Assembly (NCBI GenBank): GCA_041658645.1
Contig: JBAZZV010000006.1
Coordinates: forward strand, 19,486-83,485
Direction of reading: 5' to 3'
DNA length: 64,000 bases
Origin: Candidatus Margulisiibacteriota bacterium
GTDB taxonomy: Bacteria > Margulisbacteria > WOR-1 > O2-12-FULL-45-9 > XYB2-FULL-48-7
Under the pieces are notes generated by a model. The model was not told where the DNA came from and made no database searches. It was given only the letters and a program-made list of their open reading frames with translations. Within the stretch, counting starts at the first letter, position 1; each line of letters starts with the position of its first letter. Position numbers and translations under genes: made by a program. Below are positions 8,603 through 58,790 of this stretch, one piece after another.

Positions 8603-9253
8603 ATGAAAAAAATCCCCATCGACCTGATATTTTTCGATCTCGACGGGACACTGACCGACTCGATCCCGCCGGCGATCACCGCTATTCAGAAGATGATGCG
8701 CGAGCTCGGTTATCCGGCCAAATCCGCCGCCGAGATCCACCGTTTCGTCGGTTTCGGCGAGTTCCCGCTGATCACCGGTTCGATCGGCACTGAAGAGCCG
8801 GAGAAAGTTTCTGCCGCTATGCGCCTTTACGAAAAATATTACCAGGAAGAGGGACTGCTCCAAGTCCCGCTCTACCCTCACGTCAAGGAGATGCTCGAAC
8901 ACTTTAAAAGCAAAACGAAAGTGATCATTTCTAACAAAAAAAGCTCTTTCATCCACATCCTCCTCCGGAACCTCCGGATCGATCATTATTTCAAAGAGGT
9001 CCTCGGCGGCGACAATTCCCCCTGTCTCAAGCCCGACCCGTGTGCCATCCTGGAGCTGTTGAAAAAATACGGCGTTCCCAAAGAACGAGCGGTCCTCATC
9101 GGCGACATGACGGTCGATATCGAGACCGGCCGGAACGCCGGCATCCAGACTTGCGGCGTCACTTATGGTTTTGACGGGCCAGAAAAGCTGGCCGCGACCA
9201 AACCGGACCTCCTGCTCGACGATCTAATGAAGCTGACGGGGTCGATCGAATAA
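8603..9253 (+). CDS. HAD-superfamily hydrolase (phosphoglycolate phosphatase-like)
   Basis: FFDLDGTLTDS motif I, ...SNK motif, GDxxxD motif IV; alternative upstream ATG at 8585. Confidence 0.75.
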   Translation: MKKIPIDLIFFDLDGTLTDSIPPAITAIQKMMRELGYPAKSAAEIHRFVGFGEFPLITGSIGTEEPEKVSAAMRLYEKYYQEEGLLQVPLYPHVKEMLEHFKSKTKVIISNKKSSFIHILLRNLRIDHYFKEVLGGDNSPCLKPDPCAILELLKKYGVPKERAVLIGDMTVDIETGRNAGIQTCGVTYGFDGPEKLAATKPDLLLDDLMKLTGSIE

Positions 9254-9840
9254 TGAAGATCACTACGCTCAAAGTCGGCTCGATCCGGACCAACTGTTAT
9301 ATCGTAGAAGATGAAGCGACGAAAAAAGCTCTGGTCATCGATGCCGGGGCGGAGCCGGAGCGGATCCTTGGCTTGCTCCAGAAAAACGGGTTAAAGCTCG
9401 AGTTGATCATCGCCACTCACGGCCACTTTGACCACCTGGAGGGGGTTCGCCGGCTCAAGGAAAAAACCGGCGCCCGTTTCCTGATGCACCAGGCCGATCT
9501 GTTCGGCTTGAAAACGACCGACGCCCCCCAACCGGACGGCTTCCTGGCTGATTCAAATACTTTTGAAGTTGGAGGTTTGAGGTTTGAAGTTCTTCACACG
9601 CCTGGCCACAGCCCCGGAGGGATCAGCCTGTATAATGAAAAAGAGCAAGTCCTGTTCAGCGGCGATACTTTATTCCAGGGGACCTACGGCCGGGTCGACC
9701 TCCCCTTTTCGGATGAAGGAAAAATGATCAATTCGCTCCAACGTCTGCTTAAATTACCTCCGGAAACGGTCGTCTACCCCGGCCACGGGAACGCCACGAC
9801 GATCGGGGCCGAACGGAACGTAATTAAGACCGCCTGGTAA
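9253..9840 (+). CDS. MBL-fold metallo-hydrolase (glyoxalase-II/YcbL-like)
   Basis: HGHFDH motif, FEVLHTPGHSPG, downstream D and H ligands. Confidence 0.8.
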   Translation: MKITTLKVGSIRTNCYIVEDEATKKALVIDAGAEPERILGLLQKNGLKLELIIATHGHFDHLEGVRRLKEKTGARFLMHQADLFGLKTTDAPQPDGFLADSNTFEVGGLRFEVLHTPGHSPGGISLYNEKEQVLFSGDTLFQGTYGRVDLPFSDEGKMINSLQRLLKLPPETVVYPGHGNATTIGAERNVIKTAW

Positions 9841-16375: not shown

Positions 16376-17113
16376 GTGAAAAAGCTTTCGATCTTTTTTA
16401 GTCTGATAACGCTACTTTTGATCACCCTCTACGGCTGTGGCCAACAGAATCAAAGCTCCACCGGCCCGATTTTCACCGACCCCGCGACCAAGCTCGCCGA
16501 ACTGGCCAGCCAGGACTTTACTGTTAAGCTTTTTTACGAGGCGGTGGCGCTGGAGCCGAAGCTGAACCAGGCCGGGGTCCGGGCCAGCATCGGTTTCTGG
16601 TCGCGCTCGCCCAACCGGGACAATCTGGTCGTCCTCCTGAACACGATCAACGCTTACGTCTCAACCGAAACCTATCGGGCGATCTGGGATGAAGGGACGA
16701 CAACCGCTACCGCCCAGCAGTATCCCTCTTACATCACCATGAACAAGGAATACTGGTATGAGCGCGCTTATCCGTTAAGCGACGGGACAGTTTCGATCGA
16801 AGGGGCCCACTACGCCGACCCGCATCCGGTCACGACGCTCGAGGCGGACCTGATCTGGGGAGCTTATTCCCAGCGCTACACCGACACAGCCAAACTGATC
16901 CGGCAGGCGACCGGCATTACGGTCGAATCGTGGTGTTTTGTTCAGGGTGCGCGGGCGCCAAGAATATTCTACGCTTTCGAATTGCCCGAATTAGTCTCGC
17001 TGGAAGCAACCGGGGATGTCTACGTCCATTTCGCTACGACTTATGAAGCCAGTTGGTTAAACGCGAGCCAGTGGATAACAGGGACAACGAATGCCCCGAC
17101 GCCGGAGCCGTAG
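16376..17113 (+). CDS. Lipoprotein of unknown function (full-length copy); GTG start 6 nt after TATAAT
   Basis: MKKLSIFFSLITLLLITLYGCGQ lipobox; TATAAT 16364-16369. Confidence 0.7.
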   Translation: MKKLSIFFSLITLLLITLYGCGQQNQSSTGPIFTDPATKLAELASQDFTVKLFYEAVALEPKLNQAGVRASIGFWSRSPNRDNLVVLLNTINAYVSTETYRAIWDEGTTTATAQQYPSYITMNKEYWYERAYPLSDGTVSIEGAHYADPHPVTTLEADLIWGAYSQRYTDTAKLIRQATGITVESWCFVQGARAPRIFYAFELPELVSLEATGDVYVHFATTYEASWLNASQWITGTTNAPTPEP

Positions 17114-17136
17114 AATAGATGCTTACACTACTTAAA

Positions 17137-17826
17137 TTACTTTCCTGTCGTTTGTAGTGTAAGAATTATTTCTTGCGCCTCTTTCTCACGCATAACCAAA
17201 TGCGCCTTTGACCATTCCAGGGCCGCAATAATGGCCTTCTTCCAGGGTTTAGGCAATTCTTCATAGTAATCAATGATTAGTCGTTTGTCACTCGCCGTTA
17301 GCGCGAGTATCGCATGTTCAAGGTCTTTGCGTTTCTTATCTGTATTCTTTCTTCTGGCCGCGATTAACAGCTTGTGTAGTCCAAAACAAACCATATTCGG
17401 GACCAAAACATCAATGCTCTGTTCTTTTACCCATACCGGATTTTTAAAAAGGATATCAACAAATCGTAAAGGGATCGCCTTAATGCTTAGGTTCCTGACC
17501 TCTTTCGCCCCAACCTCTCCCCGACCCCTTTCCGGAGTCAAGAACTCTACTTTTAGATCTGTCCCCCACATATAGATCGAACCATCTGAATTAAACCCGG
17601 TTTTGAAACCCAATGGGGCCAACAACGCAGCAATATCAATTTTATTTTTGGCTTTATATGGGCTGGGGATAAGAAAATCAATATCTACAGTCCTAAAAGG
17701 ATACGCTTTCACGCCAAAATGTTTCTGATAAAGAAGAAAACACCAGCTACCGATCAACTCGACACCCTCATCCCATAAGCCGTTTTCCTGAAATACTCGC
17801 AATATTTTATGAACAATGCCGATCAT
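17137..17826 (-). CDS. Nucleotidyltransferase-fold protein (AbiEii/GSU2403-like putative toxin)
   Basis: 229 aa; ...FRTVDIDFLIP... NTase-like segment; ATGA overlap with upstream small gene. Confidence 0.5.
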   Translation of the reverse strand: MIGIVHKILRVFQENGLWDEGVELIGSWCFLLYQKHFGVKAYPFRTVDIDFLIPSPYKAKNKIDIAALLAPLGFKTGFNSDGSIYMWGTDLKVEFLTPERGRGEVGAKEVRNLSIKAIPLRFVDILFKNPVWVKEQSIDVLVPNMVCFGLHKLLIAARRKNTDKKRKDLEHAILALTASDKRLIIDYYEELPKPWKKAIIAALEWSKAHLVMREKEAQEIILTLQTTGK

Positions 17827-18128
17827 TTTTGCTTTTTTCTGCCTTTTGTTCTATTTAATATCTTGATCATTTCCTTTGTTTTTTTTAATTCCTTTATCAA
17901 TTTCATCCTTTCGTTTATTTTCTCCTTTATTTCCTCCGGCTCATCCTTTCCCAGGTATTTGTGAACCACTTTCGGCCCTCTCCTGACTTGAAGATAATAA
18001 TAATTCTTTCCGCCGATTTTCCTCTTCTTGACGCTCCCTTTAGGCAGGCGCCCTAAACGGGCGATGATCTTTTTCTCAGTCTGGAGATAATAATCCATGC
18101 TTTCCTTTAAGATATCTTTTAAAACCAT
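17823..18128 (-). CDS. Small basic partner protein of the NTase gene (putative antitoxin/regulator)
   Basis: Start MVLKDIL preceded by AGGAGG; KIGGKNYYYLQVRRG motif; 5' part of the six-frame ORF up to 18248 is probably untranslated. Confidence 0.45.
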   Translation of the reverse strand: MVLKDILKESMDYYLQTEKKIIARLGRLPKGSVKKRKIGGKNYYYLQVRRGPKVVHKYLGKDEPEEIKEKINERMKLIKELKKTKEMIKILNRTKGRKKQK

Positions 18129-18140
18129 CACACGCCTCCT

Positions 18141-18180
18141 TACACTACATTTGTAGATTATATCGGCTTTGTAGTGTAAT
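18141..18180 (-). promoter_or_regulatory. Palindromic operator TTACACTACA...TGTAGTGTAA flanking a TATAAT -10 box upstream of the NTase-partner operon; a second copy of the same inverted repeat lies at 17123-17165 just past the operon stop
   Basis: Minus-strand reading ttacactacaaagccgaTATAATctacaaatgtagtgtaAGGAGGcgtgtgATG. Confidence 0.5.
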
Positions 18181-18263
18181 AGCAAGCGGCTATTCAATCG
18201 GCTGCTTATTGCCCAACAAATATCAAAATATGGTATTTTGTTGGGCAACTAGCGTTAAGCGGT

Positions 18264-18461
18264 TTGCGTTTCGAATCGTGGTGTTTTGTCCAGGGTGCGC
18301 GGGCGCCAAGAATATTCTACGCTTTCGAATTGCCCGAATTAGTCTCGCTGGAAGCAACCGGGGATGTCTACGTCCATTTCGCTACGACTTATGAAGCCAG
18401 TTGGTTAAACGCGAGCCAGTGGATAACAGGGACAACGAATGTTCCGGCTCCGGAACCCTAG
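18264..18461 (+). pseudogene. C-terminal duplicate (65 codons) of lipoprotein gene 16376-17113
   Basis: 18262-18461 ~97 % identical to 16921-17113. Confidence 0.75.
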
Positions 18462-18970
18462 TTTCCGGCCCCCTGTCCCTGACCTCCTTCATTATAAATC
18501 ACTTTTCGATTCCGATTATCCATGAACGAAACCGTAAACGGCGCGTTGAACTTGGTGCGATTGCCGGCTTTATCGGTCATGATAATGTGAAAATTAAACT
18601 TGCCGTCGGACAGGGTCGCGATCGTCCAAGCGACGTTGAGCTTCTTCCCTTTTTTGAGATTGGCGGCAGCTAAGACATCTCCGGTTAGACGCTGCCGGCC
18701 GTTCCCCATCCACGCCTCGACTTCGACGCTGACATCCTCGTCGGCGGAAAACGTCATGACCGGCAAATTAGTGGGGGTCATGACATTTTGAGGGGAAACG
18801 GTGGGCCGGAAGAGAAACCCGGGCGGTTTTTTATCAATAATTTTTTTCTTTAACTTCGTGTTTTTAACCGGTTGTTTGGCGATCTTTTTGACGGCGCCGG
18901 CTACCGGACCGGCTCCTGGCAGGAGCGAGAAGGAAAAAAGAACGATCACCAGGTAGATAATTGATCTCAT
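18458..18970 (-). CDS. Secreted hypothetical protein
   Basis: Start MRSIIYLVIVLFSFSLLPGAGPVAGA (signal peptide); no known domain. Confidence 0.5.
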   Translation of the reverse strand: MRSIIYLVIVLFSFSLLPGAGPVAGAVKKIAKQPVKNTKLKKKIIDKKPPGFLFRPTVSPQNVMTPTNLPVMTFSADEDVSVEVEAWMGNGRQRLTGDVLAAANLKKGKKLNVAWTIATLSDGKFNFHIIMTDKAGNRTKFNAPFTVSFMDNRNRKVIYNEGGQGQGAGN

Positions 18971-19246
18971 GGGCCTAATTGTAGCCCTTTCTGTTGAGGG
19001 AGACAAGTCAAACCCCCAATCCTCGCCCCCAACCGGCTCAAAGCTCCTGACCCACGCCTCCAGCAATCCCGAAACCCTGGCGACCGGATACCCTTTAACG
19101 GTCCTAGCCGGCACAGCCTGGGCCTATCTCCTCCCAATCGTGATAATCGGCATTTTGTTGATGGTCACGTTTAAAGAGCACGGGAAATAGAAGGGAAAGT
19201 AGCCCTAGTATCCGCCTGGACATCAATAGTGAGGTAAAATTCGGGG

Positions 19247-19630
19247 CTAGTTTTCCGTCGCGCCTAAATAAGCGAACGATTGTGGCGGGCATATGCCATA
19301 CTTGGATTTAATATCATACGACTCTTCATACTTAATATAATTTTTTATTTTAATCGCATATCCGGTTTCCTTCCCGCAAAAATAGTCATGAAAATAATCC
19401 ATTGATATTCCCGCGAACATTTTAGTGTTTTCCCACAAAGAATGTAAATCATCTGATATTATTGATTCTATTTCGAATTCCCCGATCACCCTCCCCACTG
19501 GTGCTGACGCGTAAACGACGACTCGATTTACGCCCTTCCTTTTAAATATCGCTCGCCTAAATTCATACTTTTTTTCCCCGCAAAATATCTTGTCAGCATA
19601 TTCCGGCTTAATGGATAATAATACTTTCAT
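19247..19630 (-). CDS. ASCH (PUA-like) domain protein
   Basis: MKVLLSIKPEYADKIFCGEKKYEFRR... matches ASCH N-terminal consensus; low-GC; 23-nt overlap with upstream PIN gene. Confidence 0.65.
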   Translation of the reverse strand: MKVLLSIKPEYADKIFCGEKKYEFRRAIFKRKGVNRVVVYASAPVGRVIGEFEIESIISDDLHSLWENTKMFAGISMDYFHDYFCGKETGYAIKIKNYIKYEESYDIKSKYGICPPQSFAYLGATEN

Positions 19631-21134
19631 TTGTTTTCGTCTCCTTTAGGATTAGATTAAGTTGATCTTTGCTAATTCGTGCAAACCCCCTTGGCGCCGA
19701 ATCAATATCTTTTATAATTTTTAAGTCTATTAGCTCCTTCAGGTTTAATCGCCTAGGGAATGAGTATGCACAAAGGAAATATACTACAAATGGGCGCCTC
19801 CCAGGGTTATAGTTCCACCATCCTGACAGCTCCTCTCGCGTAAATACACTTCGCTTCCCACACAATTCAATAAATCTTTCTTCATTTTCGATGTTGTCCT
19901 TCACCCCTTCGATTATACCGATTGTAGTAATTACAGACTTGAAATATCCCCCGGTTCTATAGAATACGATTAAGTCCCCTCTTCTTATGTTCCTTTCGAT
20001 TGATCTGCTTATGTAAACCTTACTAATCGCGTTACGAAATGGCTTGTCACCTTCGTAGTCCTCGGGCAATTCTGTTCGAAGGATCGAATCAGGCAAGAGA
20101 GTGGTATGATATTCTGGATATATTGGAGTGATAAATATATTATTGTCTGCCGAAATATAAGGGAAAGTAATTTTGGGCGCAGTGGGATTAAACTTTGGCG
20201 TAAAATCACGCACACACACCTCCTCCACGTCCCTGCAACTTGATGATTTTTTGTAACCATAATGATTGAAACCGAATTTCCTTAATAATTCTTTCAATCT
20301 CAACCTTTCAATACGCTCGTCGCAAATAGTCACATATATTTCTTCGGCCTTAAATAGTAGCGCGTGGTCAAAGACAATTTTCAAGAACCGTTCTCCCAAA
20401 TTAAACCCATTTGCGGCCACCTTAAATGTGCCGATTTTTAATCTTTTTTTACTGGCAAAAGCCGGTTCGATATCCGGGTATTTTTCCCCCTTATTCTCTA
20501 TTTTGATGTATAAAAAAGCTAATATTTTCTCATCCTGCATACAAACATACGCATCATCTTCTGATTTTCTATTAAACCAATCATCGAATCCGGGATAATC
20601 TTGTCTTAATGAATCAAAAAATTCATCTCTAATGTTTAAGTTGCCGAAATGCTCTTTTCTTACAGATAAAACCTTATAATTTATCAATGATGGATTCTCA
20701 GCTCTGACTCTTGCCAAAAACCCATCGATTGTAAAAACCGATGATGCTAGGCCAAGCCGGATCGCCTTATCATGAACACCACCATCTTCACTAATTAACA
20801 GGTCGACCCTTTTATTCATCAACTCATTCAACAACAAAGAATCATTAGTATCATTCTCGTTTTTGTCTAGCGGGAAACAGAGAGATTCAATCAATGGGTG
20901 GATAGGCGCTTTAGTTCGTAATACCGTATAACTTCCCAGCTTAATAAGAAAAGCTTTTACTGTTTTTGGGTCACGATGTTTTTCAATTTCCTCAACCGAA
21001 AGTGGGTGCGCACATTTAACAAAGTGCAAATCATCAAGCCATTTGAATAAAATGCCGATATCTGGGTCGACTGGGGTCGTTGCCTCTCGATGAATGATAA
21101 TATTCGTATCGAGTAAGACTTTTTTCCCTGTCAT
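19608..21134 (-). CDS. Multidomain protein: N-terminal PIN nuclease, central GNAT-like acetyltransferase, C-terminal PUA-like (ASCH/EVE-like) region
   Basis: VLLDTNIIIHRE + downstream acidic residues (PIN); ...ILAFLYIKIEN...RLKIGTFKVAANGFNLGERFLKIVFDHA...LLRKFGF (GNAT-like); RGDLIVFYRTGGYFKSVITTIGIIEGV (PUA-like); ~38 % GC. Confidence 0.55.
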   Translation of the reverse strand: MTGKKVLLDTNIIIHREATTPVDPDIGILFKWLDDLHFVKCAHPLSVEEIEKHRDPKTVKAFLIKLGSYTVLRTKAPIHPLIESLCFPLDKNENDTNDSLLLNELMNKRVDLLISEDGGVHDKAIRLGLASSVFTIDGFLARVRAENPSLINYKVLSVRKEHFGNLNIRDEFFDSLRQDYPGFDDWFNRKSEDDAYVCMQDEKILAFLYIKIENKGEKYPDIEPAFASKKRLKIGTFKVAANGFNLGERFLKIVFDHALLFKAEEIYVTICDERIERLRLKELLRKFGFNHYGYKKSSSCRDVEEVCVRDFTPKFNPTAPKITFPYISADNNIFITPIYPEYHTTLLPDSILRTELPEDYEGDKPFRNAISKVYISRSIERNIRRGDLIVFYRTGGYFKSVITTIGIIEGVKDNIENEERFIELCGKRSVFTREELSGWWNYNPGRRPFVVYFLCAYSFPRRLNLKELIDLKIIKDIDSAPRGFARISKDQLNLILKETKTNESIIIH

Positions 21135-21209
21135 TTATAGCCGAATTCTACGCTCTTTACAGGAAATAGCAAGCTCGGCCCTGAGTTCTATTGACAAGCA
21201 AATATAGCG

Positions 21210-21989
21210 GTGGGAGAATCTCCCCTGAACCTATTTTTGGGTAATAACATGACAAAGAACAAAAGAGCGTTTAAATTTCTTAGCGATTACATTAGACATT
21301 TAGAAAATGTAATTGATGAGAATGGACTAACCTTATTTCGGGGATTGGGCAAGGACTACCCTCTAGTACCTCGAATTGCAAGGATATTACTTAAAAACCC
21401 TCTTACAGCGACAGAAAATAGAATGATGAGGGATTTTCAATTAAAAAGCAGACCCTTCTTATCTATTGTTCCAAATTCTAGCTGGGATTGGTTAGCCTTG
21501 GCCCAACATCATGGATTACCAACCAGGTTAATGGACTGGACTAACAATCCGCTTGCCGCGTTATGGTTTGCCGTAAAGGATCCTCCTATAAATAATAATG
21601 ATGGCATTGTTTGGATGTTCAACGTCAATAAAGCTGATGTCCTTTCAGAAGACGAGAAAAAAACACTTAGCCCCAATCGTAACGGTCAAACAAGAATTTT
21701 TCAGCCAAACCATATCGCCGACCGCATTGCGAACCAAGGCGCATGGTTCACGGTCCATAAGTATAATTTTAGTAGAACGACACATAACGGATTTGTCCCA
21801 TTAGAGAACATGAAACGATATAAGCACTGTTTGACGCGATACCGAATTCCAGCAAAATATTTTTATGACATTCGATTTCATCTCGACTTGTGTGGTTTTA
21901 ACCATGCGTCATTATTCCCTGGGTTAGACGGCCTATGTAAACATTTATCTTGGTATCATTCTCTGCTAGAAGATGAAATAGACAAGTAA
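21210..21989 (+). CDS. FRG-domain protein
   Basis: LFRGLGKDYPLVPRIAR and AQHHGLPTRLMDWTNNPLAALWFA match FRG hallmarks (YRGQ...L.PS..R; QHYGLPTRLLDWT); low-GC; divergent from PIN gene. Confidence 0.7.
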   Translation: MGESPLNLFLGNNMTKNKRAFKFLSDYIRHLENVIDENGLTLFRGLGKDYPLVPRIARILLKNPLTATENRMMRDFQLKSRPFLSIVPNSSWDWLALAQHHGLPTRLMDWTNNPLAALWFAVKDPPINNNDGIVWMFNVNKADVLSEDEKKTLSPNRNGQTRIFQPNHIADRIANQGAWFTVHKYNFSRTTHNGFVPLENMKRYKHCLTRYRIPAKYFYDIRFHLDLCGFNHASLFPGLDGLCKHLSWYHSLLEDEIDK

Positions 21990-22038
21990 ACACTTCATCG
22001 TTTTTATTGCCCACACCATTCCAACCGTCACAACGGCA

Positions 22039-24744: not shown

Positions 24745-24880
24745 TGTCCTAGCCATCGAAACATCATGCGACGAGACCTCCGCTTCTGTAGTAAAAGACG
24801 GGAGCGAAGTTTTGTCGAACGTCATCTCTTCCCAGGTCGAATTCCACAAAAAATACGGCGGGATCGTGCCGGTGGTTTGC
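24745..24880 (+). pseudogene. Degenerate duplicate of the tsaD 5' end (first ~45 codons)
   Basis: ~75 % nt identity to 25912-26046, ending in the identical 22-mer aaatacggcgggatcgtgccgg. Confidence 0.7.
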
Positions 24881-24948: not shown

Positions 24949-25503
24949 ATGATCTCCCTGAAATCAGAAATAACACAGCAAGTATTGAACTATTTTTTCC
25001 TGAACCCGCAGGAAAGCCTTTATATCAATGAGCTGGCCAGGCAGCTTTCCCTTGACAAAAGGAACCTGGTAAAAAAGATCAAAGAGCTGGAAAATGATGG
25101 TCTTTTGATCAGCTGGTCGCGCGGCAATCTGAAGCTTTACGCCATTAACCGAAAGTTCCCCTTATACAAGGAGTACAAAAACATTGTGCTCAAAACAGTC
25201 GGCTTTGAAAAAGAACTTAAAGACGTTCTTAAAGGAACGGCCGGCGCCGAGAAAGCCTATATTTACGGCTCATATGCGAGGGATAAAATGGACGCTCACA
25301 GCGACATTGATCTTCTGGTTATCGGCAACCACGGGGTTGTTCTGCTGCAAAGAAAGATTTCACGCCTCCAGAAAAAAATTGGCCGTGAAATAAATGCCGT
25401 GAATATGAGCGCCGGGGAGTTCAGGAAACGCAGGGCAAACCAAGACCCTTTCCTTCAAAACATTTTAAAAAACAAATATATTGAGATCAAAAATGAAATT
25501 TGA
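24949..25503 (+). CDS. Minimal nucleotidyltransferase (MNT-type) with N-terminal wHTH
   Basis: GSYARD...SDIDLLVIG NTase motif; AT-rich. Confidence 0.7.
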   Translation: MISLKSEITQQVLNYFFLNPQESLYINELARQLSLDKRNLVKKIKELENDGLLISWSRGNLKLYAINRKFPLYKEYKNIVLKTVGFEKELKDVLKGTAGAEKAYIYGSYARDKMDAHSDIDLLVIGNHGVVLLQRKISRLQKKIGREINAVNMSAGEFRKRRANQDPFLQNILKNKYIEIKNEI

Positions 25504-25897
25504 TAACAAATATTTCAGCCAGCATGATTTCCCCAAGGCGCAGATCGAGAAAAACCTTGGCAATGCCATTAAAGACTTGAATATCGCTAAAAAAGACAAT
25601 ATTTTAGATGTAAAATTTAATTACGCTTACTCCGCCCTATTAAAAACCGGCCTCACTTTATTGAGCCAACAACAGATCAAAATAAAAAGCGCGCCCGGAC
25701 ATCACATCAAGATCATTGAAGCAATGGCTGAATTATTAAAAGATGATTCGATCGCTGACGTTGGGAACGCCATGCGTTCAAAGCGAAACATTGATATGTA
25801 TTCCGGCGGCATTGAAGTCACCAAAAAGGAATGCGAGGAATATATTGATTTTGTTGATAAGATTGTTGTTCAAGTAAAAGCTTTTCTCGCTTTTTAA
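25493..25897 (+). CDS. HEPN-domain protein, partner of the MNT
   Basis: Overlaps the MNT gene by 11 nt; α-helical ~135 aa with MRSKRNIDMY segment. Confidence 0.55.
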   Translation: MKFDNKYFSQHDFPKAQIEKNLGNAIKDLNIAKKDNILDVKFNYAYSALLKTGLTLLSQQQIKIKSAPGHHIKIIEAMAELLKDDSIADVGNAMRSKRNIDMYSGGIEVTKKECEEYIDFVDKIVVQVKAFLAF

Positions 25898-25899
25898 AT

Positions 25900-26949
25900 A
25901 TGCTTATCCTCGCCATCGAAACCTCCTGCGACGAAACCGCGGCGGCCGTGGTCCGTGACGGCCAGGCCGTCCTCTCGAGCGTCATCTCCTCCCAGATCGA
26001 TTTCCACCGGAAATACGGCGGGATCGTGCCGGAGGTCGCCGCCCGGAAACATATCGAGGTCATAACGCCGGTCATCCAGGAGGCGATTTCAATCGCCGGT
26101 GTCGGCTTTAAGGAGATCGACGCCGTCGCCGTCACTTACGGCCCCGGCCTGATCGGTTCGCTGATCGTCGGCCTCTCCGCCGCCAAAGCGATCGCCTGGT
26201 CACTTGGCAAACCACTGATCGGAGTGAACCACCTTGAGGGTCACATCTACGCTAACTTCTTAACTTCCAACTTCAAACCTCAAACTTCAAAACAAATTAT
26301 AAATCCAAAATCAGAAATTCCAAACTTTCCATTCATTTGTCTTCTGGTCTCCGGCGGCCACACCATGATAATAAAAGTGAATGGTCACGGGCAGTACGAA
26401 ACCATTGGGCGGACTCGCGATGACGCCGCGGGGGAAGCTTTCGACAAGGTCGCCCGTTTTCTCAAACTCGGTTACCCCGGCGGCCCAATCATCGATAAAT
26501 TAGCTAAAGAAGGAAACCCCAAGGCAATTAACTTTACCCGCCCTATGCTAAATGATGGGTACGACTTCTCGTTTAGCGGGATCAAGACTGCTGTAGTCAA
26601 CTTTGGTACCAGGTACCAGGTACCAGGTACCAGGGTCGAAGATGTCGCAGCGTCGTTCCAGCAAGCCGTCGTCGACGTCCTAGTCGAGAAGACAGTCCGG
26701 GCCGCGCTTGACCACGGTTGCCGGACGGTTACAATCGCCGGCGGGGTCTCGGCTAACTCCCAGCTCCGCCAGGAGCTAATGACCAAAGGCAAAGCAGCCG
26801 GACTCAACGTCATCATCCTACCGTTCGAGTACTGCACCGACAACGCCGCCATGATCGCCTGCGCCGGTTATTACAAATTCATTAATTCGTCATTAGACAT
26901 TAGTCATTCGTCATTTTCCCTAGCCCCCGTTGCCAGTCTCAAGTTGTAG
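25900..26949 (+). CDS. tsaD: tRNA N6-adenosine threonylcarbamoyltransferase TsaD, carrying three in-frame repeat insertions
   Basis: [31 protein letters not shown]-terminal CTDNAAMIA; inserts at 26258-26335, 26609-26636, 26873-26905. Confidence 0.85.
   Translation: MLILAIETSCDETAAAVVRDGQAVLSSVISSQIDFHRKYGGIVPEVAARKHIEVITPVIQEAISIAGVGFKEIDAVAVTYGPGLIGSLIVGLSAAKAIAWSLGKPLIGVNHLEGHIYANFLTSNFKPQTSKQIINPKSEIPNFPFICLLVSGGHTMIIKVNGHGQYETIGRTRDDAAGEAFDKVARFLKLGYPGGPIIDKLAKEGNPKAINFTRPMLNDGYDFSFSGIKTAVVNFGTRYQVPGTRVEDVAASFQQAVVDVLVEKTVRAALDHGCRTVTIAGGVSANSQLRQELMTKGKAAGLNVIILPFEYCTDNAAMIACAGYYKFINSSLDISHSSFSLAPVASLKL
26258..26335. repeat. Family-2 dispersed repeat (single arm) inserted in-frame in tsaD
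   Basis: cttccaacttcaaacctcaaacttcaaaacaaattataaatccaaaatc...; relatives at 34646-34720 and 58655-58790. Confidence 0.6.
26873..26905. repeat. Family-1 repeat arm (cgtcattagacattagtcattcgtcatt) forming the 3' end of tsaD
   Basis: Similar to 648-765 and 46744-46783. Confidence 0.55.
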
Positions 26950-26987: not shown

Positions 26988-27266
26988 ATGAAGATCGATG
27001 TGGAGCATGTCGCCCGGCTCGCCCGGCTCGGTTTAACCGAAGAAGAAAAAGCGCTCTTTTCCCAACAGCTCTCCGCCATCCTCGACTTTGCCGCCAGCTT
27101 GCAAAAGCTTGAGACTGGCGACCTGCCGCCGACCGCCCACGCCATCCCGATGAAGAACATCTTCCGCGAAGATGAAGCTATCCCTTGCGAAAATGTCGAT
27201 GATATTCTGGCAAATGCGCCTGAGGAAGAGGAACATATGTTCAAGGTACCTAAAATACTGGAATAA
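26988..27266 (+). CDS. gatC: Asp/Glu-tRNA amidotransferase subunit C
   Basis: MKIDVEHVARLARLGLTEEEKALF... canonical GatC. Confidence 0.85.
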   Translation: MKIDVEHVARLARLGLTEEEKALFSQQLSAILDFAASLQKLETGDLPPTAHAIPMKNIFREDEAIPCENVDDILANAPEEEEHMFKVPKILE

Positions 27267-27267
27267 A

Positions 27268-27335
27268 TGTAGGGACAACCCTTGTGGTTGTCCGAAATAA
27301 ACGGACAGGGACAAGCCCTGTCCCTACATTTTCCA
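27268..27335 (+). other. Composite nested palindrome/stem-loop between gatC and gatA
   Basis: atgtagggacaacccttgtggttgtcc...ggacagggacaagccctgtccctacat: two inner hairpins enclosed by outer stem atgtaggga/tccctacat. Confidence 0.5.
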
Positions 27336-34389: not shown

Positions 34390-35058
34390 ATGAGCGATAT
34401 CGCCTACCAAATAGGGGATTCCCTGTATTTAAATATTACCAACCGCTGCACGAACGAATGCCCGTTCTGTATCCGGAATAAAGGCCGGCAATTCAACCAG
34501 CAATATGACCTCTGGTTGAATAAAGAACCAACTGTTGATGAGATCATGGCCGCGATCGGCGATCCGGCTAAATACGAACAAATAGTCTTTTGTGGATATG
34601 GTGAACCGACAATTCGGCTGGACATCATTAAGACGGTTACCGCCGAATTTAAATCCAAACTTCAAACCTCAAACATCCAAACAAAAGACAAATCCCAATT
34701 ATCCAACCTCAAAAACGCCGCATCACCTATTATCAGGCTGGATACGAATGGAACCGCCAACCTCTTCTGGGGGCGGAACATTTTGCCGGAATTGAAAGGA
34801 TTGATCGATTTCATTTCCATCAGCCTGAACGCGGAAAACGCTGAAAAATACAATAAACTTTGCCGGCCGATGTTCGGCGAGCAAACCTATGCCGCCGTCC
34901 TCGATTTTATCCGAACGGCCAAGAGTTTCATTCCCGTGGTCGAAGCGACAATCGTCGACCTCCCCGGAGTGGATAAGGAAGCGTGTCGCAAGGTCGCTAA
35001 AGAGCTGGGGGCGAGTTTCCGGGTCCGCCCCTATTATGAGGAGAGCTATGTCAAATAA
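34390..35058 (+). CDS. Small radical-SAM protein with in-frame family-2 repeat insertion
   Basis: CTNECPFC (Cx3Cx2C) near N-terminus; ~222 aa; insertion ...FKSKLQTSNIQTKDKSQLSNLKNAAS... Confidence 0.6.
   Translation: MSDIAYQIGDSLYLNITNRCTNECPFCIRNKGRQFNQQYDLWLNKEPTVDEIMAAIGDPAKYEQIVFCGYGEPTIRLDIIKTVTAEFKSKLQTSNIQTKDKSQLSNLKNAASPIIRLDTNGTANLFWGRNILPELKGLIDFISISLNAENAEKYNKLCRPMFGEQTYAAVLDFIRTAKSFIPVVEATIVDLPGVDKEACRKVAKELGASFRVRPYYEESYVK
34646..34720. repeat. Family-2 dispersed repeat (single arm) in-frame within the radical-SAM gene
   Basis: aaatccaaacttcaaacctcaaacatccaaacaaaagacaaatcccaattatccaacctcaaaaac. Confidence 0.6.
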
Positions 35059-38671: not shown

Positions 38672-40297
38672 TTATTTAAGCAGGCTTTTCGCCGTCATCG
38701 CTTTGGGGATCGGCAGGCCCATCAAATCGAGCACGGTCACACCGACATCAGGGATGATGCCGGACTCATTCAATTTAACCTCTTTGCCGAGGACCCAGAA
38801 CGGGACCGGATTGAGAGAATGCTGGGTGCTGGCGACTTCCTGGCCCTTATTTTCCAGCTTCATCTCGTCGGCATTCCCATGGTCGGCGGTGATGATAAAG
38901 ACCCCGCCCTTGGCCGTCCAGGCGGGGACTAATTTTTCTAAACAGGCGGAGATGTCGCCGATCGCTTCGGTCGCGGCCGCCAGGTTGCCGGTATGGCCGA
39001 CCATATCGCCATTCTGGAAATTATGGACGACCAGCGAATACTCGCCCCGGTCGATCGCCCCCAGCGCGTAGTCGGTCTCCAGAAAGGCGGTCATCTCCGG
39101 CACCCAGTCGTAATGCTTCCCCTCTTCGGTCCGCTCCTTCAAGGTCATATCCTGGGCCAGATGGCGGTCTTCTCCCGGGAAAGGGTCCGCCCTCCGGCCG
39201 GAGAACCAGCCGGTGACATGAGCGAACTTCTCCGGACCGGCCAGACGCAATTGTTTTAAGCCGGCTTCGGATACGATCTGGCCAACCGTATCCGGGACCT
39301 CCTTCTCGGGGAAGGCGGTCAGGGCGTTCAAGCCGTGATAATACTCGGTCATCGCCACGAACAGGAGCCCGGCAACCTTGGCCCGCAACCCCTGAATCTC
39401 GTTGTAGCTATTGTCGTCGATCGGCTTCGTCCCTTTTTTGTAATTAAAATATTTCTTGTCCGTTTCGCAGAAGGCGGCCGTCAGCTGGATCGTCCGGTCC
39501 TGCCGGTAGTTCCAGTAAATGACCGAATCGTTCGGCCTCATCCCCTGATAATCACCGATAACCGTCGGCCTGATAAATTCATCAGTTTGCCCGCGAGCAT
39601 AAGAATTATCGATCGCTTCACGGGCAGTGGCGGCTTTAAATTCCCCCGTCCCTAGTACCAAGCACCTCATGCCTATTAGCGTCTTATCCCAGGACGTATC
39701 CCGATCCATCGCGATCTCCCGCCCCATCACTGTTGCGACCCTGGTCCCTGGTCCCTGGTCCCTGATCGCTTCTTCCAGCATCGGCAAATATATTTCTCCC
39801 GCCGCCTTCGGATTAGTGTCACGGCCGTCAGTAAAGAGATGAATAGCGATGTCGGTCAAACCGTTCTTTTTAGCCAACTCGAGCAAGGCGAAAAGATGGC
39901 GAATGCTGGCGTGGACAGTTCCGCCATGTCCTTGCAGGAGCCCCATGAGATGGAGGGTTGAATTATTCTGTTGACAACGGGTGACCGCCGCCGTCAGGGC
40001 ATCGTTGCGGAAGAAACTCCCGTCATCGATCGCCACATTGATCCGTTCGATCGACTGGTAGACGATCCGCCCCGCTCCCATGTTCAGGTGGTTGACCTCG
40101 GAGTTCCCCATCGTCCCGGCCGGCAAGCCGACCGCCAGGCCGGAACATTCCAGTTTGGCGTAAGGGTGATTTTTGAACAAGTCGGCAATGAACGGCGCCT
40201 TTCCCTGGTCGATCGCGTCGTAAATGGCGTTCTTCGGCCCCTGCTCTCCGACCGCGAAGCCATCCAGAATGCAAAGATAAACCGGTGTTGTTTTCAC
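38672..40297 (-). CDS. gpmI: 2,3-bisphosphoglycerate-independent phosphoglycerate mutase
   Basis: LCILDGF, metal-binding and ADHGNAD-type motifs; probable GTG start 6 nt after TATAAT; contains (agggacc)x3 tandem repeat at 39740-39766. Confidence 0.85.
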   Translation of the reverse strand: MKTTPVYLCILDGFAVGEQGPKNAIYDAIDQGKAPFIADLFKNHPYAKLECSGLAVGLPAGTMGNSEVNHLNMGAGRIVYQSIERINVAIDDGSFFRNDALTAAVTRCQQNNSTLHLMGLLQGHGGTVHASIRHLFALLELAKKNGLTDIAIHLFTDGRDTNPKAAGEIYLPMLEEAIRDQGPGTRVATVMGREIAMDRDTSWDKTLIGMRCLVLGTGEFKAATAREAIDNSYARGQTDEFIRPTVIGDYQGMRPNDSVIYWNYRQDRTIQLTAAFCETDKKYFNYKKGTKPIDDNSYNEIQGLRAKVAGLLFVAMTEYYHGLNALTAFPEKEVPDTVGQIVSEAGLKQLRLAGPEKFAHVTGWFSGRRADPFPGEDRHLAQDMTLKERTEEGKHYDWVPEMTAFLETDYALGAIDRGEYSLVVHNFQNGDMVGHTGNLAAATEAIGDISACLEKLVPAWTAKGGVFIITADHGNADEMKLENKGQEVASTQHSLNPVPFWVLGKEVKLNESGIIPDVGVTVLDLMGLPIPKAMTAKSLLK

Positions 40298-42763: not shown

Positions 42764-44195
<1,432 letters not shown>

Positions 44196-44226
44196 AGCTC
44201 CCCTCACCCTAGCTTCGTTCAAGCTT

Positions 44227-44262
44227 AGACCCCTCTCCCTCAGGGAGAGGGGTCTTTGTTTT
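44227..44262 (+). terminator. Rho-independent terminator after eno; a second hairpin follows at 44285-44308
   Basis: agacccctctccct-cag-ggagaggggtct + ttgtttt. Confidence 0.7.
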
Positions 44263-44359
44263 GGTAAAGCTGAGGTGAGGAAAACCCTTCTCCCACAGGG
44301 AGAAGGTCACAAGCCTCAACTAAGTTAGATGAGGGGAACGCCATTAGGTGAGGGCTGCC

Positions 44360-45979: not shown

Positions 45980-46781
45980 TTAACTTCTCCCGCAACCCTT
46001 CGCCAACAAAATAAAGTGCTAGGACTGATATTAAAATTAAGACCCCCGGAATGATCGCCATCCACGGAGCATCGCGCATGTACGCCTGCGAATCCATCAA
46101 CATATTTCCCCAGGAAGACATCGGCGGTTGGACGCCGAGGCCAAGAAAAGAGAGGGCCGATTCGGTCAGGACAGCGCCGGCCATCCCCAGCGTTGCGGCG
46201 ACGATGATCGGGCTGGAGGCGTTCGGCAAGATATGGCGGAAGATGATCCGGAAGTCAGAACAGCCGATAGCGCGAGCGGCTTCCACATACTGCAACTCCC
46301 TGATCCGGAGGAATTCACCCCGCACCAGCCGCGCCACCCCCATCCAGGAAGTCAGCCCGATAACGATCATCACATTATAGATATTGGGAGTCAACATCGC
46401 CTGGATCGCCAGGATAAGAAAGATCGAGGGGAACGCCAGCATCACATCCACCCCGCGCATAATGACACTATCCAGCCAACTGCCGTAATAGCCGGAGAGT
46501 GCCCCAAGCAAAGTCCCGATCAACACGGAAATTATGACGGCAACCGCGCCAACGGTCAGCGAGATCCGCGCGCCGTAGAGCGCCCGGCTTAACAGATCAC
46601 GCCCCAGATCATCAGTCCCGAACAGATGCCGGAGTGACGGCCCCTGGATCTCCGATTCAGTGATCTCGGACGGATCAAACGGAGCCAGTGCCGGAGCAAA
46701 TATCGCGGCAGTTATCATGATTAAGATAATAATAATACCAACATTCGTCATTCGAAATTGGTTATTCGTCATTTTATTCAT
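45966..46781 (-). CDS. ABC transporter permease (DppC/OppC type); N-terminus encoded by a family-1 repeat
   Basis: Permease EAA-like region ALSFLGLGVQPP; N-terminal MNKMTNNQFRMTNV from repeat. Confidence 0.8.
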   Translation of the reverse strand: MNKMTNNQFRMTNVGIIIILIMITAAIFAPALAPFDPSEITESEIQGPSLRHLFGTDDLGRDLLSRALYGARISLTVGAVAVIISVLIGTLLGALSGYYGSWLDSVIMRGVDVMLAFPSIFLILAIQAMLTPNIYNVMIVIGLTSWMGVARLVRGEFLRIRELQYVEAARAIGCSDFRIIFRHILPNASSPIIVAATLGMAGAVLTESALSFLGLGVQPPMSSWGNMLMDSQAYMRDAPWMAIIPGVLILISVLALYFVGEGLREKLNVRG

Positions 46782-57550: not shown

Positions 57551-58786
57551 CTAATCTTTGATCGGGAACAAGATCCTTATCGCCGTGACGTTTGACAGCG
57601 CTGTATTCGCCCAGGCGGGAACATCTCCGGTCAGGTCATAGTCGTCAAATTCCTCCGCCGGCATCGGCTGCCAATTATCTTTCCCTTTCAATTTAACCTC
57701 GACCAGGAAACGGCCTAACAATTTATTTTCCCAGTCGTCAGCCAGCAGATCGTTCTCACCGTAGACCGGGCGGAGGAAATATTTAAATAATGGGGCTGTT
57801 CCTTCGAGCGACGCCCCGCCGACCTCCGCCGGGCCGACGACCAGCCACTGGGTCAGCTCCCGGACCGACTTCATCGTCTGCCCGTGGAGAGAGGGAACGA
57901 TCTGAAAGCCGCCGATCTTCCCCAGGCGCGAAGTACAAACATCGATCACCCCGGGATGGTTGGCCCGGAGCCGGCCGACCGAGGCGTACTTGGTCCCGTC
58001 AAAGCGCCCGACCCCAATGACCGGGCGAAGGACCTCGCCGATCACTTTTTCCCCGCCGGCAAAATAATTCACGGTCACTTTACCGCCGAACTTGTTCTCA
58101 AAAATGATCTCTTTGGGTTGATCGGCCGCCCGCTCGACCATAATATAGAGCTTGTCGTTCAGTTGAGGGACATAGCCTACCGGCAGCGGCACGATGGCAT
58201 AACCGGGACGCGACAACATAACCCGGTTCCCCACGAACGGCGAGTATTCCCCGCCAAAGATCGACTCCCCGGCCGGGATATCGGTATAGAGCGAGGAATC
58301 GGAGCTTAAGTAAGAGCGATATCGGGACTGGGTCTTGAGGAATTCCCTGGGGAGGAGGCTGAAGATGACACCAGAACCGGTCGCCGCGCCAAGCGCGGTC
58401 TTGATGTGGATAGCATTGACCGCGGTGGCCGCTATCCGCCCATCGCCAACCCAGCGTGAAGCGGCATACCCTTCGGGATTAGTTTTAATTGTCGGATAAA
58501 CCACTTTACCCAGTTGAACGTAACTTTTCCCGCCGTCGGCGCTGACCTCGACCGTCCCCCCCGCCTGGTTCCAGATCTTAATCCGGTACTGCTCCTTGAA
58601 AATAGGGGTATTCTCGTGGTCCAACGGAGAGAGCGCGAAAGCCGGAGCAGTAACATCCAACATCAAACATCCAACCTCAAAACAAATGGCAACGATCAAA
58701 CAACAAATACCAAAATATTTGGTTATTGGAAATTGATATTTGATATTTGTTTTGAAGTTGGAAGTTGGAAGTTTGAAGTTCTTCAA
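57551..58786 (-). CDS. Hypothetical protein (start uncertain; 5' region coincides with a family-2 repeat)
   Basis: 411-aa ORF; possible starts at TTG 58786, or ATG of MLDV... Confidence 0.4.
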   Translation of the reverse strand: MKNFKLPTSNFKTNIKYQFPITKYFGICCLIVAICFEVGCLMLDVTAPAFALSPLDHENTPIFKEQYRIKIWNQAGGTVEVSADGGKSYVQLGKVVYPTIKTNPEGYAASRWVGDGRIAATAVNAIHIKTALGAATGSGVIFSLLPREFLKTQSRYRSYLSSDSSLYTDIPAGESIFGGEYSPFVGNRVMLSRPGYAIVPLPVGYVPQLNDKLYIMVERAADQPKEIIFENKFGGKVTVNYFAGGEKVIGEVLRPVIGVGRFDGTKYASVGRLRANHPGVIDVCTSRLGKIGGFQIVPSLHGQTMKSVRELTQWLVVGPAEVGGASLEGTAPLFKYFLRPVYGENDLLADDWENKLLGRFLVEVKLKGKDNWQPMPAEEFDDYDLTGDVPAWANTALSNVTAIRILFPIKD

Positions 58787-58790
58787 GACC
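58655..58790. repeat. Family-2 repeat, full palindromic copy (two inverted arms around ccaaaatattttgg)
   Basis: Left arm catccaacatcaaacatccaacctcaaaacaaat; right arm atttgttttgaagttggaagttggaagtttgaag. Confidence 0.6.

Follow-up and report, generated by a model that had tools for sequence, protein, structure and literature searches.

In a 64,000-nucleotide (nt) stretch of a Candidatus Margulisiibacteriota genome (contig JBAZZV010000006.1; the whole stretch is called the window here), we found a dispersed repeat family built of 7-nt units that lies in frame inside conserved genes. The segments at 26260-26325 in tsaD and at 34648-34716 in the gene for a TatD-associated radical S-adenosylmethionine (rSAM) protein, together with a two-arm copy at 58652-58780, are members of this one family, and we regard it as likely that the family is a lineage-specific set of small non-coding repeats of Candidatus Saganbacteria that was spread by copying and whose survivors were filtered by selection. 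An earlier note on the same DNA had described related units in tsaD, in the rSAM gene, and at 58655-58790, the first two in frame and the third a palindromic two-arm copy overlapping the 5' end of an open reading frame (ORF). These observations were borne out, with refined coordinates, by pattern matches, by grouping of the repeats, by reading of the ORFs, and by the shorter orthologues. New relative to that note are the fixed-length heptamer architecture, a 28:1 strand rule, the reading of the element in each of the three codon phases, its almost exclusive occurrence in Saganbacteria, and the apparent replacement of a signal peptide by the full copy. The features concerned are listed in Table 1.

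Table 1. Members of the repeat family in the window and the genes that hold or adjoin them
Feature	Position	Strand	Remarks
Single arm	26260-26325	+	In frame within tsaD
Single arm	34648-34716	+	In frame within the TatD-associated rSAM gene
Full two-arm copy	58652-58780	-	Codons 3-45 of ORF 57551-58786
Four outer units, no inner arm	9562-9591	-	Inside the MBL-fold hydrolase gene, T-rich strand as sense
tsaD, 349 aa	25900-26949	+	Pfam TsaD, E 4.9e-97; NCBIfam TIGR03723, 432 bits
TatD-associated rSAM protein, 222 aa	34390-35058	+	Pfam Radical_SAM; TIGR04038, 260 bits
Secreted protein without a named family, 411 aa	57551-58786	-	Conserved in Saganbacteria/Margulisbacteria; no name from Pfam or NCBIfam
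pepA, leucyl aminopeptidase	58783-60270		Pfam Peptidase_M17
MBL-fold hydrolase	9253-9840		Host ORF of the array at 9562-9591

RESULTS

Architecture of the repeat

A 17-nt pattern, AACTTCAAACYTCAAAC, was taken from four named loci, i.e., the three given above and an array in a gene for a metallo-beta-lactamase (MBL)-fold hydrolase, and was matched against the window with up to three mismatches allowed. It gave 14 overlapping matches, all of them at these four loci, while 0.25 were expected from dinucleotide-preserving shuffles of the window. A repeat search of the window placed 26261-26324, 34650-34713, and 58651-58714 in one direct-repeat family (73% identity to the reference) and returned 58652-58714 and 58718-58780 as an inverted repeat with 63-nt arms, 75% complementary and separated by a 3-nt spacer. 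Tandem Repeats Finder detected period-7 arrays at all four loci, every copy opening with about four 7-nt units, and showed six further sites of period-7 arrays elsewhere in the window. When a strict self-similarity threshold was applied, the window contained four arrays of period 7 and none of periods 5, 6, or 8 to 11, and shuffled sequence contained none at all.

The arm consists of (AACNTCM)x4, followed by AAACAA(A/T) and then by about five degenerate 7-nt units of the form NNNCAAA or AAATCNN. Two inverted arms flanking a short AT-rich center make up the full element of about 125 nt (observed range, 108 to 134 nt); single arms, of about 65 nt, end where the center of the palindrome would be. 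Exactly four outer units were present in 74 of 96 arms, a constancy of length that does not resemble a microsatellite subject to slippage. All 22 full copies that were aligned keep the outer four-unit arrays, in inverted orientation, in the manner of the terminal inverted repeats of MITEs (miniature inverted-repeat transposable elements). Two types of inner arm, AAGGCAAAAGCCAA... and ATATCAAATATCAA..., recur on opposite sides of the full copies, and the full element therefore has polarity. The order of the composite, from the array through AAACAAA and TCCAAAA to TCACAAA, recurs across unrelated genes, and one 23-nt inner segment is identical in a BioA-like gene (locus L007) and in dprA (L059).

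Distribution among genomes

A degenerate 27-mer, AACHTCMAACHTCMAACHTCMAAACAA, which matches all four window arms, was used to scan one genome per species (185,579 species, 596 Gb). The scan returned 70 stretches against about 0.01 expected by chance according to our own arithmetic. Of these, 55 lay in ten metagenome-assembled genomes (MAGs) or single-cell genomes labeled Saganbacteria, Margulisiibacteriota, or WOR-1, so that the family extends to 55 loci beyond the window; the richest genomes were Zod_Metabat.143 (21 loci) and DeMMO3_43 (16 loci). Five more were found in unclassified "bacterium" MAGs, one of which has Saganbacteria-like tsaD and rSAM genes, and the remaining ten in other named taxa, several of them being plain AACNTCA simple-sequence arrays. 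The named relatives nearest to the window TsaD belong to candidate division WOR-1, that is, Candidatus Saganbacteria, an uncultured sister group of the Cyanobacteria, which NCBI places in the Cyanobacteriota/Melainabacteria group. The 27-mer had no match in IMG/VR, and a phage as the vector was rejected on that absence. Our literature searches turned up nothing on repeats in Saganbacteria.

Family-like arms also occur outside Saganbacteria, in a MAG labeled Desulfotomaculaceae (L032, a complete two-arm copy), in a deltaproteobacterium (L034), and in a member of the Auribacterota (L049). They could reflect mis-binned contigs, horizontal spread, or a wider distribution of the family.

In-frame copies in tsaD and the rSAM gene

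The tsaD arm reads TTA, then AACTTCC AACTTCA AACCTCA AACTTCA, AAACAAA, and TTATAAA TCCAAAA TCAGAAA TTCCAAA C. It falls between the invariant YANFL and the FPFxCLLVSGGHT motif, and the predicted protein runs ...YANFL-TSNFKPQTSKQIINPKSEIPN-FPFICLLVSGGHT, with ANFLTSNFKPQTSK as a junction peptide and (L)TSNFKPQTSKQIINPKSEIPN as the peptide that the insert would encode. In an alignment with 24 relatives (66 to 85% identity) the invariant columns are kept, and the catalytic motifs are intact. The Thermotoga maritima TsaD (PDB 6nak) has 15 residues fewer at the insert position, the closest relatives of the window TsaD (P0001, P0003, P0006, P0007, and P0013) have only 6 to 10 residues there, and the window loop exceeds the shortest Saganbacteria TsaD loops by 11 to 15 residues; the earlier note was right about the additional length in tsaD but put it too high, at about 19 amino acids. 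Locus L005 carries near-identical insert DNA at the same tsaD site, although the two TsaD proteins are only 67% identical. In an AlphaFold2 model of the window TsaD, which is of moderate quality (mean predicted local distance difference test [pLDDT] score, 65), residues 121 to 144 form a coil with pLDDT below 50 between a helix (residues 111 to 120) and a strand (residues 145 to 150).

The rSAM arm (TTTAAATCCA AACTTCA AACCTCA AACATCC AAACAAA AGACAAA TCCCAAT TATCCAA CCTCAAA AAC) would encode FKSKLQTSNIQTKDKSQLSNLKN, and the ORF reads ...AEFKSKLQTSNIQTKDKSQLSNLKNAASPI-IRLDTNG with the insert in frame. The orthologues in L004, L038, and L066 are shorter by 19, 15, and 21 amino acids, respectively, exactly at the insert; the rSAM locus of L004 is syntenic with that of the window. 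The match of TIGR04038 to the window protein is split in two around the insert. Far from being shared with unrelated taxa, the extra residues are thus missing from the T. maritima TsaD and from close Saganbacteria orthologues of both proteins. The earlier note had spoken of a palindromic repeat within essential genes. The family does have a palindromic full form, but in these genes it is represented by single A-rich arms, about 65 nt in length, that do not fold (RNA of the tsaD arm is unstructured, folding z +0.7).

The TsaD loops counted as uninserted are themselves made of heptamers. That of L004 (L004:5524-6564) is AGTCCCC AGTCCCC AGTCCC, in the register of the unit CCCCAGT of cyanobacterial short tandemly repeated repetitive sequence 1 (STRR1), and that of L002 (L002:3001-4011) is made of CAGTTCC-like units; the loop peptides NSKSEILNTKQ (P0008) and ETGNWKLETGK (P0039) suggest further unit types. 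The window tsaD also contains a second perfect heptamer array, GGTACCA x4.3 at 26605-26634, which encodes GTRYQVPGTR at another length-variable site of TsaD. A nucleotidyltransferase/HEPN-like gene pair (24949-25897) directly precedes tsaD and is likewise found before tsaD in L004 and L002. Upstream of this pair lies a copy (24747-24876), about 80% identical, of the 5' coding end of tsaD (25907-26036), which looks like a remnant of the insertion of the nucleotidyltransferase/HEPN-like cassette.

Strand rule and codon phase of the genic copies

Arms were pooled from the loci of the 27-mer scan, and ORFs were classed stop to stop and not by gene caller; an arm was counted as being inside an ORF when the ORF was long, with at least 30 codons on both sides of the arm. 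Among about 44 single arms away from locus edges, 28 were inside long ORFs with the A-rich strand as sense and a single one with the T-rich strand as sense; the others were at ORF N termini (2), at C termini (2), or in no ORF (11). Single arms, most of which are intragenic, outnumber the full copies (n = 25), and the latter were intergenic in 13 cases, at gene 5' ends in 7, inside long ORFs in 4, and C-terminal in 1. The one ORF-internal full copy checked with Pfam is in a PMT_2 membrane glycosyltransferase.

The hosts of arms that were verified with Pfam are a class III aminotransferase (Aminotran_3, BioA-like), MnmA, a GltD-like oxidoreductase (Fer4_20 plus Pyr_redox_2), PGM/PMM, TruB, RadA, MazG, Tgt, DprA, type III pantothenate kinase (CoaX, Pan_kinase), MutS, a ThiL-like AIRS protein, LarC, LplA/B, and DNA polymerase I (PolA). 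Some inserts sit at borders of Pfam domains, namely, between Fer4_20 and Pyr_redox_2, between PGM domains I and II, between the zinc ribbon and the ATPase domain of RadA, and between the catalytic and winged-helix domains of DprA. The insert is at the same site in two or three species in the BioA-like protein, PGM, RadA, MazG, DprA, LarC, and TsaD.

The 28:1 strand rule follows from the distribution of stop codons, since the A strand is nearly stop-free (at least two stop-free frames in 80 of 93 arms, and all three in 28) and the T strand is mostly closed (47 of 93 without any open frame). From gene to gene, the reading of the AAACAA junction shifts among the three codon phases, giving SKQ, KTN, or QNK, and the identical 23-nt segment of the BioA-like gene and dprA is read in two different phases. 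Because all three phases are used, and because near-identical tsaD inserts occur in proteins sharing only 67% identity, the family is conserved as DNA and not as a peptide.

A full copy at the start of a gene for a secreted protein

ORF 57551-58786 begins with a TTG codon overlapping the stop codon of pepA (cTTGAag), and the full copy starts right behind it. On the minus strand, the order is A-rich arm (58780-58718), then T-rich arm (58714-58652). The codons covered by the copy read KNFKLPTSNFKTNIKYQFPITKYFGICCLIVAICFEVGCLMLDV, followed by TAPAFA|LSP; arm by arm, these are KNFKLPTSNFKTNIKYQFPITKYF (A arm) and GICCLIVAICFEVGCLMLDV (T arm), then TAPAFA|LSPLDHENTP, and the frame is open through both. 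The T arm encodes the sole hydrophobic stretch of this ORF that could be the core of a signal peptide.

L156 and L158, in which the element is absent, share the gene order lemA-pepA-ORF with the window. At such empty sites the ORF opens with an ATG that overlaps the stop codon of pepA, and it has a plain 20-residue Sec signal peptide (MRPFLPVLFLLAVVGTAAA|LSPLDHENNP in L156 and MRKAFLISIFCCLLSALCWA|TSPIDREND in L158), and other orthologues have leaders of the MKFLSAIFLGLVLTHSVFA|ATP type at the same place. L157, whose orthologue has 69% protein identity, shares this element, which by eye is about 90% identical and likewise leaves the frame open; both filled sites, that of the window and that of L157, retain the overlap of the start codon with the pepA stop codon. 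The position of the copy suggests that it stands in for the ancestral signal peptide of the secreted protein, an export function that we infer from the sequence comparison.

The seven full copies at the 5' ends of unrelated genes often have a Shine-Dalgarno sequence and an ATG just before the A arm. They include those in L060 (aaggagggcaaaaATGAACATCAAAC), L065, L026 (a GH26 enzyme), L006 (FlgH, the flagellar L-ring protein), and L041, in which the element-encoded leader ends in LAAGC, which resembles a lipobox. FlgH is an exported lipoprotein. Homology to ORF 57551-58786 as the source of the other N-terminal copies was rejected, as tblastn matched the element-encoded N terminus only and the downstream proteins were unrelated. 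Full copies at gene starts probably function as signal peptides, and the survival of full copies within coding sequence would seem to be limited to places where a polar stretch joined to a hydrophobic one is tolerated.

The gene call of the L157 orthologue (L157:900-2009, P0124) starts at an ATG inside the T arm (MLDVTTPALA...) and leaves the secreted protein leaderless. Three further orthologues, P0185, P0172, and P0183, have differing long N-terminal extensions ahead of the hydrophobic core; the extension of P0185, NPNDELPNDEINPN...GIGNWEFGI, looks like the AATGACG-type palindrome family, and the extension of P0172, too, finishes with ...QTSNF. It appears that several repeat families share a hotspot at the 5' end of this gene.

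The array in the MBL-fold hydrolase gene

The MBL array, TTTGAAG TTGGAGG TTTGAGG TTTGAAG TT, encodes FEVGGLRFEV. It holds an exact 17-mer of AACTTCAAACYTCAAAC, and 23 nt of it are 96% complementary to the rSAM copy, a closer match to the family than chance would give. The resemblance pointed out in the earlier note is therefore a genuine four-unit array, but as an insertion it was rejected: homologues in the PDB align without gaps through the array, no net length is added, and the length is also unchanged relative to metagenome relatives. FEVGGLRFEV-LHTPGH conforms to the hairpin motif common to the protein family, x[LIV]x[VI]Gxxx[FL]xV[ILV]H.PGH, i.e., the array is colinear with the native beta-hairpin before HTPGH.

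For comparison, 80 metagenome relatives were fetched and about 40 were inspected at the hairpin motif. In the two closest, the hairpin is made of the same units in another order, TTGGATG TTGGAAG TTTGAGG TTTGAGG (LDVGSLRFEV) in L076, which is 61% identical, and TTTGAGG TTGGAGG TTTGAAG TTTGAAG (FEVGGLKFEV) in L077, which is 60% identical; L078 and about 40 more distant MBL homologues encode the hairpin in unrelated, ordinary codons. What the MBL gene carries is therefore an array in T-strand sense which, in one clade, has replaced a native hairpin of equal length. A T-arm peptide, FEVGGLRLEV, is found also in element-encoded leaders (L060) and at the C terminus of the TsaD protein P0001.

Folding of the full copy

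The full copy at 58652-58780 folds as a long imperfect hairpin, both as DNA (-28 kcal/mol, z -6.4) and as RNA (-45.5 kcal/mol, z -6.9). The N and M positions of the paired units do not match, which gives a mismatch roughly every 7 nt, and the inner arms are not complementary beyond their common periodicity. A scan of the window with Rfam gathering thresholds gave one tRNA only and no family at the element. A recent inverted duplication was rejected as the origin of the palindrome, the arms within an element being no more alike than those of different elements, and a conserved structured RNA or selected hairpin was rejected for want of covariation among the 22 full copies.

DISCUSSION

Proposed origin of the copies and its rivals

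We propose that new copies are generated by copying from existing ones and that selection removes all but the harmless ones. The A/C-rich strand, almost free of stops, would yield a structure-free peptide rich in K, N, Q, T, S, and P, and a single A-sense arm would be tolerated as a loop or domain linker of about 20 residues in soluble housekeeping enzymes, as with tsaD and the rSAM gene of the window. TGA codons mostly close the T/G-rich strand, which, where open, would give a hydrophobic peptide rich in F, L, I, V, C, and G. Full copies would then persist only between genes, in membrane proteins, or directly behind a start codon, where the A arm would provide a long polar n-region and the T arm the hydrophobic core of a signal peptide. 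The element itself would be non-autonomous, with its conserved four-unit ends (AAC-TC- units) bound by a trans-acting factor and with single arms arising as one-ended or center-broken products; this last part is a working guess, which we hold tentatively and think more apt to fail than to hold. Regarding a target, the 6 nt upstream of 96 arms showed a weak T at -2 (46 of 96), with TA in 19 and TG in 13, so that a TA or TTAA target was not supported. By inspection, with no systematic search made, we noticed no facing arms about 0.7 to 3 kb apart outside the full copies in the fetched loci.

Several observations weigh against spread by copying. Mobility is deduced from the distribution of copies and was not seen directly, no target-site duplication was visible on inspection of the ends of full copies, and no autonomous partner or transposase was noticed on inspection of the fetched loci, in which no systematic search was made. 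The two arms of an element show no sign of a common recent origin or of joint maintenance: over the inner 30 nt their similarity is 0.587 within one element and 0.604 between arms of different elements, and RNAalifold on 22 full copies kept only the invariant outer pairs, with 0 compensatory changes and a consensus energy of -2.4 kcal/mol. Arm similarity that is not raised and compensatory pairing that is missing thus lend no support to a recent inverted duplication or to a selected hairpin. In addition, heptamers make up the TsaD loop of all the Saganbacteria orthologues, the families of units differing among them, and both the native AACTTC of the invariant YANF motif, which adjoins the tsaD array, and GAATTAAAATCAAA in the rSAM orthologue of L038 resemble the element's end. 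The heptamer-built TsaD loops and the abutting AACTTC leave room for local turnover by slippage or conversion instead of transposition. The main rival takes this up and supposes no mobile element at all, with heptamer arrays arising and turning over in place through replication slippage and local gene conversion and with the similarity between loci being convergence. It can draw further on the sole over-representation of period 7 in the window (the four strict arrays), on the several unrelated heptamer arrays detected by Tandem Repeats Finder, and on the MBL hairpin, which is array-encoded and has its units reshuffled between orthologues. It does not, however, account well for the many intergenic copies, and copying is favored over growth in situ because the four-unit length is fixed, the same ordered composite recurs in unrelated genes (the identical 23 nt of L007 and L059 being an example), and the full copies have a recurrent polarity with two inner-arm types. 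We therefore consider an origin in place unlikely.

Alternatively, selection might act on the full copies as hairpins of RNA or DNA that, for example, terminate transcription, stabilize mRNA, or regulate translation of the downstream gene, with the genic arms as inert debris. The folding z of about -6.5 in both DNA and RNA, the intergenic position of 13 of the 25 full copies, and the fact that several abut stop or start codons would fit such a role, but the result of RNAalifold, the regular mismatches between units, inner arms that pair only through their periodicity, the empty Rfam scan, and the prevalence of single arms, which are commoner than full copies and are the conserved form inside genes, make it improbable. 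Selection on the inserts as peptides, with a flexible linker or an interaction motif peculiar to the lineage being recruited again and again for its function in the protein, would agree with their uniformly hydrophilic peptides and with retention at the same site across species in seven proteins; this is nevertheless very improbable, for three phases of the same DNA give different peptides, identical DNA occurs also in non-coding palindromes, and close orthologues function without the insert. An artifact of MAG assembly or binning deserves mention since MAGs are the source of all the data and assembly is known to suffer from repeats, yet an independent ENA contig (L001) has exactly the same tsaD insert, related copies are present in ten genomes assembled by different groups, including the single-cell genome SAG AM-311-D05 (L037), and reading frames are preserved throughout, so that we give this explanation next to no credence.

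Comparison with known repeat systems

Rickettsia palindromic elements (RPEs) are palindromic repeats that lie in frame inside many unrelated genes (Ogata et al. 2000, as summarized in PMC10969869). The Saganbacteria family resembles them in being short, multicopy, palindromic, and confined to one lineage, and in occurring in frame in unrelated housekeeping genes, at tolerant surface or linker positions, with the ORF preserved. RPEs are typically palindromes of about 100 to 150 bp in many copies, and the family agrees with this in its full elements of 108 to 134 nt and in the 21 and 16 loci that the strict pattern gave in two MAGs; in-frame copies with an intact ORF are present in tsaD, the rSAM gene, and 28 further genic copies. 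The likeness to RPEs drawn in the earlier note was in this way supported by a dispersed family, a palindromic full form, and in-frame copies in essential genes. RPEs insert as whole palindromes of about 100 to 150 bp, whereas the genic copies in Saganbacteria are one arm and a whole palindrome in a gene is not the rule (four ORF-internal full copies). The host is of another phylum, the element is made of 7-nt units and obeys the 28:1 strand rule, and its full copies would be translated only where a hydrophobic segment is acceptable, as in signal peptides and membrane proteins. The strict pattern matched no rickettsial genome among the named taxa; the family is set apart from RPE-1 to RPE-10 by host and pattern scan, not by alignment to RPE consensus sequences.

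In build, the family is closest to the heptameric repeats of cyanobacteria. The STRR heptamers of heterocystous cyanobacteria were reportedly described by Mazel and colleagues in 1990. STRRs are reported to lie inside the RNase P RNA gene of these organisms. The cyanobacterial heptamers and the present family are both dispersed tandem heptanucleotide arrays from the same broad clade with a preference for four units; the STRR units, however, are CCCCAGT, TTGGTCA, or CAACAGT, compared to AACNTCM here, and the present host belongs to a non-photosynthetic sister lineage. An array in the CCCCAGT register was found only in the TsaD loop of L004 among the orthologues. The heptameric repeats of Nostoc and Calothrix (GGGNATC arrays in Nostoc) prefer four units and are over-represented in non-coding and under-represented in coding sequence (Rehm et al. 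2015, PMC4692102). The Saganbacteria family differs from these in its composite arm, its two-arm palindrome, and its frequency in ORFs. Formation of G-quadruplexes has been proposed to explain the four-unit preference of the cyanobacterial heptamers (PMC4692102); for the A/C-rich unit AACNTCM, which is without G-tracts, that explanation looks implausible.

Bacterial MITEs, such as Correia, ERIC, Nezha, and others (reviewed in PMC10969869), share with the present family a length of about 125 nt, inverted terminal repeats, the lack of coding capacity of their own, a high copy number, and now and then a fusion in frame to a host ORF. The differences are that in our family no target-site duplication was seen, no parent insertion sequence with the same ends was noticed, single arms are the commonest form, and the ends are 7-nt arrays. 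Repetitive extragenic palindromic (REP) sequences and their inverted doublets (REPINs), which form systems with REP-associated tyrosine transposases (RAYTs) (Bertels and Rainey 2011, PMC3116915), likewise combine singlets and inverted doublets of one short repeat at high copy number within one lineage. REPs, however, are extragenic by definition and each is a small palindrome, whereas the Saganbacteria arms are mostly intragenic and not self-complementary. We know of no description of REPINs with target-site duplications. The small dispersed repeats (SDR) of Nostoc punctiforme, with units of 21 to 27 nt, are said by Elhai and colleagues (in 2008) to be nested in other repeats, tied to tandem heptamers and hairpins, and apparently mobile; they too are very small repeats of the cyanobacterial lineage, but they are not 65-nt arms translated inside genes. 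The Saganbacteria family thus combines RPE-like behavior with a build like that of the cyanobacterial heptamers and is a member of neither group.

Other repeats in the window

A second palindrome family of heptamers is present at 649-680 and 732-767, one of its arms consisting of AATGACT units and the other, about 50 nt away, of CATTCGT/CATTAGT units. The 3' end of tsaD is formed by one T-arm copy of this family (26878-26918), which encodes FINSSLDISHSSFS, the same peptide being found in the TsaD proteins P0003 and P0014, and a further copy lies at 46736-46776. A perfect heptamer array, CCCTGGT x3.7, is located at 39739-39764. Between 48448 and 49672 there is a 117-nt (39-residue) tandem repeat of about 10.5 copies with 81% identity, which makes up the C-terminal two-thirds of a 698-amino-acid protein (ORF 48407-50503, minus strand; unit, ...ALKKALKVAADLANKYQDQGVTPSDAWRFAV..). 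Two palindromes are unrelated to the heptamer families, one at 27265-27331, between gatC and gatA, with 30-nt arms that are 80% complementary, and one at 44191-44291 with 50-nt arms that are 70% complementary. The stretch from 17000 to 22000 has a low GC content of 0.38 to 0.43, compared to about 0.54 elsewhere in the window, and is possibly acquired DNA.

Significance

To our knowledge, in-frame selfish repeats in essential genes are essentially one textbook case, that of Rickettsia. A second, independent case in a free-living candidate phylum shows that such insertion is more than a peculiarity of genomes undergoing intracellular reduction. The strand rule amounts to a natural experiment on which peptide insertions proteins tolerate and where they do so. 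For the annotation of Saganbacteria MAGs, the elements matter because gene callers truncate or mis-start genes at them, as with P0124, and because profile matches are split, as with TIGR04038. The heptamer build and the four-unit preference link the family to the cyanobacterial STRRs and other heptamers and suggest a shared mechanism older than oxygenic photosynthesis.

Should the full element indeed have the role of a signal peptide, a repeat would have given rise to an export signal, for which our limited literature searches gave no bacterial precedent. A bolder and rather doubtful extension is that Saganbacteria, and possibly the whole Cyanobacteria-related clade, have a system that writes fixed-length heptamer cassettes and, since one cassette strand is hydrophilic and free of stops and the other hydrophobic, routinely creates loops and linkers and, in the two-arm form, Sec signal peptides. 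If that were true, selfish or semi-selfish DNA would directly supply proteins with export signals and essential enzymes with diverse loops.

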